From Octopus vulgaris (lineage: Eukaryota): a stretch of DNA of 64,000 bases. Made by a program: the position numbers and the translations under genes. The stretch's first letter is position 1; each line of letters begins with the position of its first letter. Under the pieces are notes generated by a model. That model worked only from the letters and a program-made list of their open reading frames with translations, was not told the origin of the DNA and made no database searches. Location: contig OX597814.1 of assembly GCA_951406725.2 (NCBI GenBank), positions 131,688,001-131,752,000 on the forward strand, read 5' to 3'. Positions 11,322-55,861 of this stretch are shown in pieces.

Positions 11322-12147
11322 TTTTCTTATTTTTTTATTGCCCACAAGGGGCAACATAGAGGAGACAAACAAAGACAGACAAACGGATTAAGTCGATTAC
11401 ATCGACCCCAGTGCGTAACTGGTACTTAATTTATCGACCCCGAAAGGATGAAAGGCAAAGTAGACCTCGGCAGAATTTGAACTCAGAACGTAGCGGCAGA
11501 CAGAATACCTATTTCTTTACTACCCACAATGGGCTAAGCACAGAGAGGACAAACAAGGACAGACAAACGGATTAAGTCGATTATATCGACCCCAGTGCGT
11601 AACTGGTACTTATTTAATCGACCCCGAAAAGATGAAAGGCAAAGTCGACCTTGGCGGAATTTGAACTCAGAACGTAACGGCAGACGAAATACCTATTTCC
11701 TATTTCTTTACTACCCACAAGGGGCTAAACACAGAGAGGACAAACAAGGACAGACAATGGGATTAAGTCGATTACATCGACCCCAGTGTGTAACTGGTAC
11801 TTATTTAATCGACCAGTGTGTAACTGGTACTTATCTAATCGACCCCGAAAGGATGAAAGGCAAAGTCGACCTCGGCGGAATTTGAACTCAGAACGTAACG
11901 GCAGACGAAATACCTATTTCTTTACTACCCACAAGGGGCTAAACACAGAGGGGACAAACAAGGACAGACAAACGGATTAAGTCGATTATATCGACCCCAG
12001 TGCGAAACTGGTACTTATTTAATCGACCCCGAAAGGATGAAAGGCAAAGTCGACCTTGGCGGAATTTGAACTCAGAACGTAACGGCAGACGAAATACGGC
12101 TACGCATTTCACCAGACGTGCTAACGTTTCTGCCAGCTCGCCGTCTT
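11322..12147 (-). mobile_element. Tandem tetramer of a tRNA SINE with a Nin/Deu-like domain
   Basis: Four units of about 185-215 bp containing gcctttcatcctttcggggtcga...agtaccag, inside one 15-bp TSD (cctcttacctatctc). Confidence 0.9.
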
Positions 12148-31777: not shown

Positions 31778-32208
31778 GGATCTTTTCGGTTTGACCGGCA
31801 GTTTTTTCTAGCGGTGTCATATGAAATTGTCATCCATAATTATGACCCTAGTATCGACCTATTGCATTTCAATGTTTTAGGGTTAGGGTTAGGTTTAGGT
31901 TAGGTTTAGGGTTGGGGGAAGGGTATCTTTTTTTCTTCAGAAATGTAAATAAACCCAATCTGTTTCTTAAACGAGGGACATATTCATACAGCACAGAATG
32001 TTTTCACCTCAATAGACGTCATTGATTGGTTGAAATTGCAGAAATTGAAGAAAAAAAACAACAAATATCTTACAAACTATAGAATTTTCTCAATAAAGCC
32101 AAGAGAAAAAGATGTTTTATAAACACATTCTACCAGTATACGAAGTTTAAAAGTGTTTAGTTACGTGGAAATTATTTTAAAAAACTGCCGGTCAAACCGA
32201 AAAGATCC
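31778..32208. mobile_element. MITE with perfect 30-bp TIRs, 8-bp TSD and internal TTAGGG-like repeats
   Basis: TIR ggatcttttcggtttgaccggcagtttttt and its reverse complement. TSD tctcactg at 31770-31777 and 32209-32216. Confidence 0.92.
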
Positions 32209-42849: not shown

Positions 42850-43274
42850 CTGATCTTAACTGATTGGAAGTGTTATCATGTACATTGTCTTGTCATTAAC
42901 CTTAACCAGTTGAGCATGTCCCTCAGTGACTGACAATATGTGCATATCTGATCACGAGCAGAAGTAGTGGGGAAGCATCATAGCCATGGGTTTAGAGGAA
43001 TTCTTTAGGGTTTTAATAATTCATCTCTGGAAACAACCCTTGTTCAGGGACCTTTTGAGCTGGATGGGCTACTCAAACTGAAGAAAATTCAAATTGGGTC
43101 CCACCTGTAAGATCATGATATGAGATCACCATGTCGCGCACATATGGTTGAAATGCATGTGCCTGATGTACCCTTATCAGACGAGTAGTCATTATGGGCA
43201 TACTGGGCTTCGTATATTTTATCCCAGTGTCACTTTGATGGCATGAACTGCTCTCTCACTCAATAATAATGATG

Positions 43275-43340
<66 letters not shown>

Positions 43341-43480
43341 GAGATCACCATGTCGTGCACATATGGTTGTGATGCATGTGCCTGGTGTACCCTTATCAGA
43401 CGGGTAGTCATGATGGGTATATTGGGCTTCGTATATTTTACCCCGGTGTCACTCTGATGGCATGAACTGCTCTCTCACTC
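42850..43480 (+). mobile_element. AAT-tailed retroposon 3' ends (two nested copies; a third at 34010-34200)
   Basis: All share gagatcaccatgtcg...ctctctcactc followed by (AAT)n, with variable 5' truncation. Confidence 0.75.
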
Positions 43481-43481
43481 A

Positions 43482-43554
<73 letters not shown>

Positions 43555-46057
43555 TAATAATAATAATGATAATAATGATAATAATAATAATAATAATGAT
43601 AAGAAGAAGAAGAAGATGAAGAAGAAGAAGGAGGAGGAGGAGGAGGAGGAGGAAGAGGAGTGAGAAGATGTTGATGGTAATGAATTTGGCACTAGGTCAG
43701 CAATTTTGAGGGTAAAGTGTTAGTCGATATCGTCAATTACAGTTTTTGAATGGTACTTTATTTTATCGATTCTAGAGTAATAAAAAAAAAGGTATTCGAC
43801 GGAATTTGAACCTTGAACGTTAAGAGCCGAAACAGATATTACTTTAGCGAACGTTCCAGATAATGGTGTCTGGTGTTTAGATGATAGCTTGACCTCTGCT
43901 AGATTTAATTTCGGGACGTGAAGGGCTGAAACAAATACTACTTTAACGGTACTGACGAATATCAAAGAGGCATAATGCATTATATGACTGGAAGACAGAG
44001 AACTTACAATTAAATTGACTCCGGTACCTGTCGGGCACGTCAGAGCTAATTAACTCTTGAAGGATGGGGATTAAATATGCCATCGACCAAATTTCAACAC
44101 AGAATGTAAAGAGTCCTAACCAAATATTACAAGACATTTATTCCGGCATTTTACCGATGCCGAGTAATAATGATAATCAAACGGAATGTCACTGGCTACG
44201 TAGTTTTAGCCAGAAAAAAAATCTCTACATCTCAACCTCCTAAAACTATTTGTAGCTATTCAAAAACAAAGTACTACAGATGAAATAATTATATGGTAAT
44301 AAATTACTATGTCCACTTCAAAGCCACTTATATGGAAGCTATTTATAAATGCATCCCGATCCAAAAATAGTTTCTTTGTCCCACTTTACCGTATTATGAG
44401 AAATGAGGACATTAGAGACTTTCTTAAACTGGAATGTATACCAGCAGTATGAAAACCGGTGCTTTAGACACACATCAGAAACTGCTTCGAAGCATCTCTA
44501 CTCTGAGATATGGCAATCTACACAGAGAACGAGGGTAATACACCAGAAAAGAAAGTGCTTCCTAAAGGAAGTATCAATCTCAACAGATGATGATGTATTG
44601 CTCAAAGAAATTGCGAAATTATTCATATCCTTAAATCCTTAAAAATGTTTCAGCCCGAAAGCTGCGGCCATGCTGGGGCACCACCGTTGAATGAGCTACA
44701 CTAGTATGTGAAACCATATACAAAGATTGGGAAATAGTAAAAAAAACCCAAATAACCTGAATGCTGTTTTTGAAAATAGAAACAACTCTTACCATAGCTG
44801 GTACCTTGGAAATGATCAAAAGTAGGCAGAAAACTGCTGAACTAAACTTTCAGGACTTATACATATGCGCAACATGCAGAAAGTAGCACTAAATATATTG
44901 CATGATATGTTGCCTAGAGTATTTTCAATACAAGAAGCAGAACAAAACATTATTCATATCTATGGCATAAAGGGATTCACTGGGTAGTGCAATGACAGTG
45001 AGTAATAAAGATTAAAATACATTATTGTTATATAACTGGTGTTAGTTTGTATAAATATCCGCTATCTTTTACAAACTTGGAAGATATCCCTATGCCTCCC
45101 TATAAACATGCAGTGTTTCATTTACTGAGTACAAATGTGTTAATTATAGCATGCTAAATTATACAATATTGTACAATAAGCTACTTGTATATATTTAACA
45201 TATACTTAAGCATTCTGAGAAATAGGAAATCCTTGTGAAAAGAGCAACAAATAAACGGTGTATTGTTTGTCGGTCACAAATGCTCCCACTAGCCCATTTA
45301 CTTATAGTGATATTTTTGTATCGGCCTAATTTTCAATTAAACAAGGAAATATACGTCAGCTTTGAGCACGATTATCATGACTAATATAAATTTCGGAATG
45401 CTTATGATCAGTCAATCATATATGTTTACATTAAAAAAAATCGCGCTATTATACATTATAATCTCATAAAATTATATTATACATTATAATCTCATAAAAT
45501 TATTTTTCTCGTATATTTTCATTGGTTTCATTCACTATGTGGCATACCTATTTCTTTATTATCCACAAGGGGCTAAACATAGAGGGGACAAACAAGGACA
45601 GACATAGGTATTAAGTCGATTACATCGACCCCAGTGCGTAACTGCTACTTAATTTATCGACCCCGAAAGGATGAAAGGCAAAGTCGACCTCGGCGGAATT
45701 TGAACTCAAAACGTAACAGCAGACGAAATACGGCTACGCATTTCGCCCGGCGTGCTAACGTTTCTGCCAGCTCGCCGCCTTTCGTAAGCTGGAATTTATA
45801 CCAGCAGTATGAAAACCGGTGCTTTAGACACACACCAGAAACTGCTTCGAAGCATCTCTACTCTGAGATATGGCAATCTACACAAAGAGAACGAGGGTAA
45901 TACACCAGAAAAGAAAGTGCTTCCTAAAGGAAGTATCAATCTCAACAGATGATGATTGGTGGCGTACCATCTTCCCTATTACATCGATTCTGTTACTTAT
46001 TTTCTATGACGCTATGTACGTGTATATGAAATGGACGTGTGTGTGTTTGTAAGAGAG

Positions 46058-46118
<61 letters not shown>

Positions 46119-46425
46119 AAGAGTGTGTGTGTGAGAGGTGCGTTCAAGTTCCTGGAACTCACATCTATAACTTTTTAAGTATATTTACACTCTCTAAGAT
46201 GTTTGGAAAACCTATATGAAATTAAGCTGAAGATTACTTGACATTATATTTGCTGTAATTTTTGCAGCTTTAATAAAATATTTATAGTATGAAACAATTG
46301 TACTAAGCTACTGATCCATTCTTGTTGCTTATTTTTTGGTTACATACACAAATAGATATGCATAAATCTTTTTTGTATGTGTGTGCGTGCGTGTGTGTGA
46401 GCGAGTGATGCCTAAGTGGCACTCA

Positions 46426-46837: not shown

Positions 46838-46887
<50 letters not shown>

Positions 46888-46989
46888 GGAGTAAACACAT
46901 AAATGTGAAACAAGGTGGAAAAAAGAGTACTCAAATACCAGTGGTAGAGTAATATGCTTTATTTAAAGCAGCAGAAAATTCAACAAAAC

Positions 46990-47089
46990 CTGTTACTCTG
47001 AGTTTCGCGTTGCCGTTCATCGGACATTTTTTGCTAGATTACATAGCAAAAACTGTCCGATGAACGGCAACGCGAAATTCAAAGTAACA
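46990..47089. ncRNA. Back-to-back minimal hammerhead-like motifs (46990-47026 minus; 47054-47089 plus)
   Basis: ugu-CCGAUGA-acg gcaa cgc-GAAA-cucagag-UA-aca, a U4C core variant. A fragment at 59706-59726 restores the acg/cgu stem II. Confidence 0.65.
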
Positions 47090-47121
47090 CATTTTGTTGA
47101 ATTTTCTGCTGCTTTAAATAA

Positions 47122-47167
<46 letters not shown>

Positions 47168-47317
47168 CCAATTAAGGACTGCACACGAAAAGTGGACAGT
47201 CAACATGCTAGATATAGACGTCAAATCGCCATTCTCCACAAAAAGTTTATGTTCTCAGATCAAACTCAACAAAACCAAAGTAATAAACAAGTGAAAAATA
47301 TACGAAATAAATATTTA

Positions 47318-47384
47318 CCCATGTACTAAATTTAGTTTCAGCTGTTATTTTCCGCAAGGAAAAGTGCAGCATCATCAGCATGGT
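47318..47384 (-). ncRNA. Type I hammerhead ribozyme, inverted copy
   Basis: Reverse complement of 47984-48050, with an intact core. Confidence 0.85.
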
Positions 47385-47983
47385 CCCATATAAAATGTAA
47401 TTTGCTGGACTAAATGCCAACAGACACCAAAATATCGCGTGCATGGAGTCCGGCCTATTACATTTGAAATATATATTTCAAATGCCACTACTTTTGGCGC
47501 GATGAGACCCGAGAAAACTAGCCTGTACTAAATTTAGTACATGGGTAAATATTTATTTCGTATATTTTTCACTTGTTTATTACTTTGGTTTTGTTGAGTT
47601 TGATCTGAGAACATAAACTTTTTGTGGAGAATGGCGATTTGACGTCTATATCTAGCATGTTGACTGTCCACTTTTCGTGTGCAGTCCTTAATTGGTATAT
47701 ATAAATATTTTAATCTTCGGATTCTTTTTTAATATGCTAGACCACTGGTTCTAATTGATAAATATCAATTTTTACCCTAAATTTAATTTTATAAATATTT
47801 GTTCTCTAACCGATAAATTAACTGCTGCTAACTATTAGCTGCAGGCTAGTTTTCTCGGGTCTCATCGCGCCAAAAGTAGTGGCATTTGAAATATATATTT
47901 CAAATGTAATAGGCCGGACTCCATGCACGCGATATTTTGGTGTCGTGTTGGCATTTAGTCCAGCAAATTATATTTTATATGGG

Positions 47984-48050
47984 ACCATGCTGATGATGCT
48001 GCACTTTTCCTTGCGGAAAATAACAGCTGAAACTAAATTTAGTACATGGT
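47984..48050 (+). ncRNA. Type I hammerhead ribozyme (canonical core)
   Basis: accatg-CUGAUGA-stem II (gcug/cagc enclosing uuuucc/ggaaaa)-GAAA-c uaaauuua g-UA-cauggu. Stem I is 6 bp, stem III is palindromic, and the cleavage triplet is GUA. Confidence 0.88.
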
Positions 48051-48297
48051 TAAATATTTATTTCGTATATTTTTCACTTGTTTATTACTTTGGTTTTGTT
48101 GAGTTTGATCTGAGAACATAAACTTTTTGTGGAGAATGGCGATTTGACGTCTATATCTAGCATGTTGACTGTCCACTTTTCGTGTGCAGTCTTTAATTGG
48201 TATATATAAATATTTTAATCTTCGGATTCTTTTTTAATATGCTAGACCACTGGTTCTAATTGATAAATATCAATTTTTACCTTAAATTTAATTTTAT

Positions 48298-48358
<61 letters not shown>

Positions 48359-50124
48359 GGCGGTGCCCCAGCATGGCCACACCTCGTGAGCTGAAACTAG
48401 ATGAAAATGAAAATGAAAAAGATATATATTGGCTGGCTTCCCGCATGCGTAGAATTCTACTGAAATACTAAACTTAAAGAATACCAGACCACTGCCAGAA
48501 AGCCCGGCATGCTAGAAACAGCAGGTAAACGACATCATTTCTGAAGAAACTCCACCGTTTTCCAAAAAGCTAAAAATAAAACATTGGGAGTGTGTAGCTT
48601 TTTGAAAGTAGTGAGGTGATGGGTAAAATTCTTAAAGATTCGTACTCTGTTTTCTTTTTTCTCCATGGATTACAAAAAAAAAAAAAAATTGAAAAAGGTA
48701 AAATATGTATTTGGTGTGGAGAGGGAAAAAAATTAAAATATTGAGAACGTATTTTGTGGGTGAAATCCTAATCTCCTATATCGCAAACATAAAAATCGGA
48801 ATAAATTTAAGGAAAAGAATAAGGGCGGGGAAGGAAATGTCACCTCGGACATACTAGAAAGAAGCGAAAAAGGACAGGATTTCTGAGAAAACTTCCTTTT
48901 GAGTGTATATCATCAAACACACAAATTGCACAATAGAAAAAGACAATTTCAGTTGGACTTGAGCTGTAAATTTGCGCGTGCACACTGTAAGAAATAACAC
49001 AATTCACACAGAAGTTTTACCTAAAGTGTGTGCATGTGTGTCAAAGGAAGTTAGTTTATGGCTTTCTTTCGTTAGAAGAAGTAAAGTTGTCAACTCGACA
49101 TATACGGGATCATAAGATTGTTGGTTAATTTCCGTAAAATTGTTTTAATTTCTGTGTGCTTTCAAGAAAGCAGAAGCTGAAAGAGAAGATAAAGTGAAAA
49201 GGCGACATTTGCTTTGAAGTGAGAGGAGAAAGTAAAAGAGAGGAGAAAGTGTATATGAAATGGACGTGTGTGTGTGTGTGAGATAGATAGATATATACAC
49301 ATACATAGCGGAGGTAAAGAATATGCATACCACCCATTTTCGGCGTAACTCTAAACCTAACCCTAACACCTAACACCGAGAGTGCACATTCTCTACCTTC
49401 ACCCATAAATACATATGCATACATCTTTTGTGTGTGTGTGTGTGAGAGAGAGAGAGAGTGAGTGGGAGAGAGAGTGAGAGAGAGAGGGAGAGAGAGAGGG
49501 AGAGAGAGGGAGAGTGTGTGTGACTGTATTTCCTCATAACATATAGAGAAATGGATGTCTTTTAATGAAATATTTTGGGTTGTAGCTTATTTTAATACAA
49601 TATTTATGTGTACATTTTCATAACTGTTTGTTTGAGTAGAATTCTACACATGTGTGAACATTGGACGAAAGTGAAACAATGGAAGCAAATCGAAATATTG
49701 TCCAAATATGACCTCAAAATTGTGCGACCCGACCTAATTACGAAGGTTATTTTAGTTATAAAAAAGAGTTGAGTCCAAAACAGTTTGTTTGGTAGATAGA
49801 TAATAAGCAGCTTTCTTTATTATAATACAGATGTGACTAATTCGGAGAAACATTACTTTCATTATTCACACATCGTAATTCTCGTAATACAACACTTCAA
49901 AATTTTCATTCAAATTGAAAGTGAGAAATTATTTTCATTTTCTAACGAAACCTGGTCGTTGTAGAGAAGTGTAGTTGAAATAACTATAGCTGGTTTTTGA
50001 GATAACGTAGAAAATATGTGAATGAAAATAAAGTTTATTTGACATGTGTAATTCCTTTGATTGTTCTAGTCTTAACATCAGTTAACAGAAGTCATTTGAG
50101 GACAACTTTTAGTTTGAGGACACC

Positions 50125-55313: not shown

Positions 55314-55443
55314 TACATCCACATATTCCAAAGTTTTCTATTCTCTTTTTCGGGACCTCCTTTATGCACATGCCACTTTATGCACTTAGTCACTCAGACA
55401 GTGGATGACATGCAAATACATATGAATCATATTTCTGCTTCTT

Positions 55444-55861
55444 ATTTCTTTATTGCCCACAGGGAGCTAAACATAGATGGGACCAACAAGGACCAACAAA
55501 CGGATTAAGTCGATTAGATCGACCCCAGTGCGTAATTGGTACTTAATTTATCGACCCCGAAAGGATGAAAAGCGAAGTCGACCTCGGCGGAATTTGAACT
55601 CGGAACGTAATGGCAGACGAAATACCTATTTCTTTACTACCCACAAGGGGCTAAACACAGAGGGGACAAACAAGGACCGACAAACGGATTAAGTCGATTA
55701 CATCGACCCCAGTGCGTAACTCGTACTTATTTAATCAACCCCGAAAGGATGTAAGGCAAATTCGACCTCGGCGGAATTTGAACTCAGAACGTAGCGGCAG
55801 ACGAAATACCGCTGAGCATTTCGCCTGGCGTGCTATCGTTTCTGCCAGCTCGGCGCCTTAA
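55444..55861 (-). mobile_element. Tandem dimer of the same SINE
   Basis: Two units. TSD atatttctgcttctt at 55429-55443 and 55862-55876. Confidence 0.9.

Follow-up and report, generated by a model that had tools for sequence, protein, structure and literature searches.

A (TA)n-inserted 505-bp hammerhead tandem element in Octopus vulgaris, likely a non-autonomous retrozyme copied by a Hydra-clade Penelope-like element

The window, i.e., the whole 64,000-nucleotide stretch of Octopus vulgaris DNA that was analysed, was found to contain a (TA)n-flanked insertion in which an inverted arm of 359 bp lies head-to-head with a tandem arm of 1.5 units. Positions within the unit 47796–48300 (505 bp) are given as q, the predicted scissile bond lying between q249 and q250. 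The locus contains the following features:

47118..47164, no strand: left (TA)n target tract
47167..47525, minus: inverted arm ("A arm"), q45–406; its 3′ end is site A and runs into (TA)n
47311..47392, minus: predicted complete type I hammerhead in the inverted arm; predicted cut between 47324 and 47323
47524..47541, no strand: head-to-head junction, an 18-bp perfect palindrome made of stem III plus 1–3 added or shared bases
47527..47795, plus: 5′-truncated unit of the tandem arm, q237–505, from the 5′ edge of stem III across the cut site
47796..48300, plus: full 505-bp unit; its 3′ end is site B and runs into (TA)n
47540..48044, plus: predicted cut-to-cut monomer, 505 nt
47883..47906, plus: 24-bp palindrome (second copy at 47461–47484)
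47976..48057, plus: predicted type I hammerhead of the tandem arm; predicted cut after 48044
48200..48208, plus: site A, ATTGG/TATATATA, passed through in the tandem arm; also at about 47695
48201..48300, plus: "tail" between sites A and B, about 95 nt, on the tandem arm only
48303..48356, no strand: right (TA)n target tract

The repeat period was shown to be 505 bp: 47527–47795 and 48032–48300 form a direct repeat with 99% identity, and 47167–47525 (minus strand) showed 98% identity to 47842–48213 in inverted orientation. The original prediction had described inverted copies of a 360-bp unit within (TA)n. The inverted copies and their (TA)n surroundings were found as described, but the period is that of the 505-bp unit 47796–48300, and the supposedly separate partial and full copies proved to be one unbroken tandem arm (47527–48300), 47796–47841 being part of the unit. 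A long imperfect hairpin (about q113–172) follows the 24-bp palindrome, upstream of the ribozyme. The element has no coding capacity, its longest stop-free frame being 99 aa, and any target-site duplication would be masked by the (TA)n at both sides. The direct copies differed at three sites, and the inverted arm differed from the full unit at four of 352 compared positions. Because of these internal differences, and because the head-to-head layout was present in 42 of 58 loci of the repeat family to which the element belongs (family A), an assembly artefact is unlikely to lie behind the inversion. No sequence spanning the studied junction was seen in the contigs (as opposed to reads) of public runs.

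At 46887–47122 of the window, another short inverted element was found between two (TA)n tracts, with arms at 46958–47036 and 47044–47122. It contains a minimal hammerhead-like motif on the minus strand (CCGAUGA...GAAAC...GUA), similar to a motif in L140, and its minimum free energy fold did not yield a hammerhead. This is probably an older remnant of a Penelope-like element (PLE) whose (TA)n received the studied element. A weak covariance-model match at 46213–46315 (14.5 bits, E = 0.26), in which CUGAAGA and GAAAC accompany a palindromic stem III (CAAUUG), is possibly a decayed hammerhead or a chance match. Elsewhere in the window, tandem or dispersed repeats with a 184–219-bp period (11328–12028, 43120–43557 and 55443–55810) are probably SINE-type elements, and a short interstitial TTAGGG-like tract of about seven units is located at 31877–31917.

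Two complete CUGAUGA...GAAAC...GUA motifs, as originally reported, are present at 47311–47392 (minus) and 47976–48057 (plus). On the plus strand, stem I is formed by CCAUG and CAUGG, CUGAUGA is located at 47990–47996 and GAAAC at 48029–48033, stem II is two-part with a U-U mismatch at its base, and the palindromic stem III spans 48032–48043. The features of type I, i.e., the CUGANGA/GAAA/UH core, three helices and stem I as the open end, are all found. Of 99 whole family-A copies, 95 had an unbroken core pattern. Type I hammerheads are expected to have a purine-pyrimidine pair (typically G10.1-C11.1) at the base of stem II; at this position, 45 of the 99, including the studied copy, had U-U, and 38 had G-C or G-U behind a bulged U.

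A search with Rfam, suggested as a check on the ribozyme, gave no match at the gathering threshold across the window, and none of the 10 matches up to E = 10 on 47100–48400 was a hammerhead. An Rfam match is a convenience test and no defining property of a type I hammerhead; it is therefore on covariation that the ribozyme assignment is based. In an alignment of 13 sequences, 97.3% of cells were paired and both sides had changed in 10 of 18 pairs, compared to 25–44% of cells paired when the partners were slid by 1–3 columns. A second alignment (15 distinct rows, one of them misaligned) gave a similar result. The rows were taken from three related families (A, B, and C), and because of this relatedness the shuffle counts are not probabilities. 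The score of the minus-strand hammerhead is partly circular, since the plus-strand copy and its relatives were the sequences from which the covariance model had been derived. On the basis of these comparisons, a type I hammerhead fold of the element is well supported.

The self-complementary stem III had been expected to favour a dimer, in agreement with the predicted energies of −10.8 to −13.6 kcal/mol for the dimer and 0 to −0.9 kcal/mol for the hairpin. Stem III sequences differ among the families while their self-complementarity is kept, and stem III of metazoan hammerheads has been described as stable in the dimer and not as a hairpin (PMC4209133). Folded as a circle, the 505-nt monomer was predicted to form the hammerhead across the junction, with −127.8 kcal/mol compared to −97.7 ± 5.0 kcal/mol for 60 two-base-block shuffles. 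At locus L005, three consecutive units share a mismatch in the stem I pair beside the predicted cut, which fits dispensable cleavage. Eight of nine predicted Xenopus retrozymes were reported without cleavage in vitro in a 35-genome study (10.64898/2026.07.22.740005).

At least 135 matches to the unit (73–100% identity) were found in the 2.8-Gb assembly, in which the DNA search scored the best 40 of 1391 candidates, and an exact 23-mer from the ribozyme occurred 54 times. The 58 family-A loci examined were best hits and pattern hits and thus not a random sample; duplicates of one insertion were removed, and one locus contained two insertions. Ends and breakpoints were taken by hand from BLAST output. 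The 42 loci with head-to-head layout gave 43 junctions, and in the other 16 no inverted arm of at least 25 bp was present, three of them (L033, L034, and L036) having short inverted stubs. Sixteen family-A arms each contained 2–5 whole ribozymes, and the studied locus contains one whole and one partial ribozyme unit in tandem. At the level of the family, the features by which retrozymes are recognised were found, i.e., tandem non-coding units, at least two of them consecutive with a complete type I hammerhead. Family A is dispersed among TA microsatellites of the genome and without an ORF, thus non-autonomous. Pieces of it were found in contigs from four public runs presumed to be RNA, in which strand, ends and cleavage are not readable; none of the listed pieces had at least 31 letters at both sides of the cut site. 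No published account of family A was found in the main texts of the literature searched; relatives may be listed among the Hydra family tables of PMC8557442.

Family B is about 80% identical to family A (30 loci, 26 of them distinct and 19 inverted), and family C is older. Together with family D, these are non-coding hammerhead tandem families with units of about 507 bp (B, L105–L134), 530 bp (C, L135–L154) and 470 bp (D, L155–L179), in which the 3′ part is conserved more strongly than the ribozyme region. Family D has a two-part stem II as in family A and a palindromic stem III.

The partial copy had been described as beginning at a palindrome made from stem III and the cleavage site, and the structure was taken to record template switching at that site. 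The 18-bp palindrome (47524–47541) is present, but with its first base at 47527 the arm begins 13 nt before the scissile bond (between 47539 and 47540) and therefore not at the cut. If ribozyme self-cleavage made an RNA end at which the reverse transcriptase (RT) switches template, inversions would arise at stem III. One possible parsing of the studied junction puts its start precisely at the complement of the end of the 5′ cleavage product, and the palindrome there is perfect; L026, which breaks at q241, and one L027 arm, which starts at q251, also agree with such switching. However, the junction palindrome occurred only once in 2.8 Gb, and breakpoints were not enriched at stem III. Within family A, 2 of 86 fell in q233–250 compared to 3.1 expected (p = 0.82), these two being the studied locus and L026, and wider windows around stem III gave the same null result. 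In family B, none of 38 breakpoints was at stem III or the cut, and in the public-run contigs none of the 15 listed joints (17 in all) was at stem III. Besides, the predicted cut site was crossed by 104 of 161 aligned segments, which were intact there, and only one of the 161 started at most 2 nt from it. With a unique palindrome and breakpoints at or below chance, stem III was rejected as a breakpoint hotspot, and switching at self-cleaved RNA ends is considered very improbable as the source of the inversions. Randomly distributed breakpoints had originally been named as an outcome that would refute such switching, and this outcome was observed. That the studied element inverts within the ribozyme is an isolated case, and its breakpoint in stem III is not informative.

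By BLAST ends, 28 of the 43 family-A junctions were overlapping (mostly by 1–6 nt), six were blunt and nine contained filler. The studied junction would most simply have arisen through the addition of a single base, or through a snap-back or untemplated addition of 1–3 nt together with 2-nt microhomology. Palindromes at inverted PLE junctions have been reported before, one of them of 18 bp (PMC3846280). The 5′ breakpoints of family A are possibly clustered at q44–78, q149–194 (beside the long hairpin) and q372–445 (around site A), and five breakpoints of family B were located at q66–77. These clusters were defined post hoc from a sample open to bias and may mark sites at which the RT pauses.

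The 3′ ends of the arms showed a much stricter pattern. Arms end either at site A (ATTGG/TATA, about q405) or at site B (TTTTATA, about q503), and in family A one end of each type was found in 39 of 40 determinable head-to-head junctions (p = 4e-11 compared to an independent 50:50 choice), three of the 43 being undeterminable. L061 and L063 were scored as B despite small deletions near the end, and L055, with two A-type ends, was the sole exception. The search queries favoured one end, leaving the opposite arm free to take either. The same pairing was found in 19/19 junctions of family B and in 18/18 determinable junctions of an autonomous Hydra-type PLE family encoding a 717-aa ORF (see below), so that overall 76 of 77 tabulated insertions (families A and B and the 717-aa family) paired A with B. 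In family C, all 15 junctions determinable by eye among 20 loci agreed. The insertion signature of PLEs, i.e., a partial tandem, an inverted 5′-truncated partner and a tail at one end, is thus present, and it is already known qualitatively that only one end of an inverted pair has a tail (PMC8557442; PMC3846280). A counted, strict A/B pairing was not found in the main texts of the literature searched.

In at least six loci (L035, L039, L040, L042, L043, and L044), neither arm contains the other, so that neither can have been copied from its partner by fold-back. In five loci, variants private to the insertion were present in both arms. Non-nested arms together with arm-shared private variants indicate two syntheses from one template lineage. 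This bears on the explanation that a single cDNA snaps back and copies itself, after which sites A and B serve as cut sites for the endonuclease that trims the DNA intermediate. Such self-priming has been the interpretation of palindromes at inverted PLE junctions (PMC3846280), and PLE tails have been interpreted as endonuclease resolution (PMC8557442); sites A and B are both TA-like, about 5 of the 43 family-A junctions and many public-contig joints were near-symmetric, and the L020 junction lies within a natural hairpin. However, a second RNA-templated synthesis would still be required at the six or more loci with non-nested arms, and the tail ends correspond to sites at which an RT was shown to start in vitro (PMC11167929). 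Self-priming with trimming is therefore regarded as a quite unlikely origin of the paired ends.

Arms with several units did not differ from single-unit arms in their A/B ends and head-to-head joints, and units within a single insertion were frequently identical, which supports that the tandems arrive with the insertion. It also argues against the unit being no more than what remains of the pseudo-LTR of a coding PLE, or a satellite expanded through local unequal exchange, and not independently mobile. A pseudo-LTR model has been put forward for vertebrate retrozymes (10.64898/2026.07.22.740005), and patchy variant sharing among the five units of the L066 array points to local exchange, but in the loci of families A, B, and D examined the unit wraps onto itself without an ORF. 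We consider a remnant or satellite origin highly improbable. The reading of the locus as a non-coding PLE-type or retrozyme-like element, as put forward originally, is supported.

Two coding PLE families were found adjoining family-A copies, one with a 717-aa ORF (L068:4446–9075, about 22729400–22734100 of G000:C16; L180–L199) and one with ORFs of about 960 aa. The ORFs of both contain RWK-like, DKT and CxCX5C motifs, which define the Hydra clade (PMC8557442, section 11), and nearly all Hydra-clade families target (TA)n (PMC8557442). A Pfam search of both ORFs returned no family. Hammerhead-like motifs were found upstream of the ends in both. The 717-aa family has at least 80 copies with protein identity of 98% or more, and was arranged head-to-head in 20/20 loci retrieved (20 of 80 listed), with A and B ends 72 nt apart (a 72-nt tail), both in (TA)n. 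This very young family has a 2.59-kb unit, a CCGAAGA-type hammerhead-like motif and YKDD at the RT catalytic motif, and is a good candidate for biochemical work. In the second family (L086, L087, and L088), the ORFs of about 960 aa contain asparagine-rich inserts, the 3′ UTR is longer than 2 kb and the tail measures about 170 nt, and the hammerhead-like motif of this family has a very long stem II and a CAGCUG stem III.

DNA alignment of the 3′ region of the studied unit with the two Hydra families was no better than with shuffles. The last 30 nt before A and B, compared to the ends of the approximately 960-aa family, ranked 4 to 93 of 517 windows, a weak likeness in AT-rich DNA. The ORFs beside L055 and L072 were considered as partners and rejected: each belongs to a Hydra-type insertion of its own within a (TA)n neighbourhood that it shares with the family copy, and its DNA was not significantly homologous to the unit. 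DNA searches for an autonomous partner seeded with diverged relatives returned only the non-coding families B, C, and D, and no autonomous element of matching sequence was found among the matches and the two Hydra families compared. A Hydra-type PLE as the class of driver is well supported; no individual driver was identified by sequence.

Taken together, we conclude that the locus represents a single insertion of a non-coding 505-bp tandem element that carries a type I hammerhead fold and is likely a non-autonomous non-LTR retrozyme, likely copied by the enzyme of a Hydra-clade PLE. A Hydra-type PLE protein would nick both strands of a (TA)n tract, and two cDNAs would be primed on the element RNA, one at A and one at B, one per target strand. 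Both would stop at variable points, and their truncated ends would be joined by microhomology; the 5′ ends were found to be scattered and mostly joined via short overlaps. The stem III palindrome at the studied junction would then be a local snap-back or end-joining accident. For a PLE protein from anole (Poseidon PAc), it was shown in vitro that both target strands are cleaved and extended and that cDNA starts at two internal RNA sites bounding the tail; hammerhead cleavage was dispensable, and the protein was predicted to be a dimer (PMC11167929). The start site did not differ between the strands in that system, so that strict A/B pairing is not explained by that study.

The RNA template would be whole across the scissile bond, either as a ligated monomer circle that is copied round, as proposed earlier for PLEs and retrozymes, or as an uncleaved tandem transcript, the two being about equally probable. 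Arms reach up to five whole ribozymes. Among the variants private to one insertion, 14 were present in all covering units, 6 in some and 114 in a single unit, and the six partly shared variants are not given by a single circle without later conversion. A more specific possibility, which we propose only tentatively, is that a dimeric Hydra-PLE enzyme performs twin priming on a single circular RNA made by the ribozyme, using two sites that are both obligatory and not equivalent (one for each target strand), with copying round the circle in both arms. If so, the circles of animal retrozymes would be tied mechanistically to the PLE machinery, a rule would be given behind the head-to-head-plus-tail structure of PLEs, and a natural 505-nt substrate would be available along with intact candidate enzymes in one genome. 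Twin priming, and the choice between circle and multimer, can be tested directly with the short natural RNA and the intact ORFs of 717 aa and 960 aa.

Compared to Poseidon PAc of Anolis, the element likewise has an AT-rich target and, as proposed, two internal start sites bounding the tail and insertion that would not need ribozyme cleavage, whereas its genomic copies pair A with B and PAc showed no strand difference in start site in vitro (PMC11167929). Non-autonomous PLEs of the Chlamys MRC1 type are also non-coding, often multicopy head-to-tail and PLE-dependent, but share 3′ sequence with an autonomous partner and mostly lack canonical hammerheads (PMC8557442); in the octopus element, the ribozyme is conserved and no partner was recognised by sequence.

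Animal non-LTR retrozymes share with the element low-GC non-coding head-to-tail units with one type I hammerhead each, a weak palindromic helix III and co-occurrence with PLEs (PMC7229834; 10.64898/2026.07.22.740005), and the basal U-U mismatch in helix II of the studied copy is also present in axolotl HHR_Amex2 (PMC7229834). The 505-nt unit is longer than the circles of invertebrate retrozymes (170–400 nt; PMC7229834), but within the reported range of 51–972 bp (10.64898/2026.07.22.740005). The extended two-part stem II and the strict (TA)n targeting distinguish the element from animal retrozymes, and head-to-head arms with two fixed ends were not seen among the retrozyme features described in the main parts of PMC7229834 and 10.64898/2026.07.22.740005. 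Animal retrozymes have been argued to be non-autonomous PLE derivatives (10.64898/2026.07.22.740005), and their mobilisation by PLEs was proposed from co-occurrence and pLTR similarity, the mechanism being called open (PMC7229834; 10.64898/2026.07.22.740005).

With Hydra-clade PLEs, the element shares insertion into (TA)n, a hammerhead near the 3′ end, partial tandems, an inverted 5′-truncated partner and a one-ended tail, although its tail of about 95 nt compares to 30–40 bp quoted for PLEs (PMC8557442). It is not an autonomous PLE, since an ORF for RT plus GIY-YIG is absent (longest frame 99 aa), and its DNA was not significantly homologous to that of either Hydra family compared. The A/B rule, in contrast, is identical to that of the Hydra-type 717-aa family in the same genome. 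The value of this case lies in the near-strict A/B rule and the shared footprint, and not in the stem III breakpoint: within one genome, the insertions of a retrozyme-like lineage bear the same footprint as those of a coding Hydra-type PLE.
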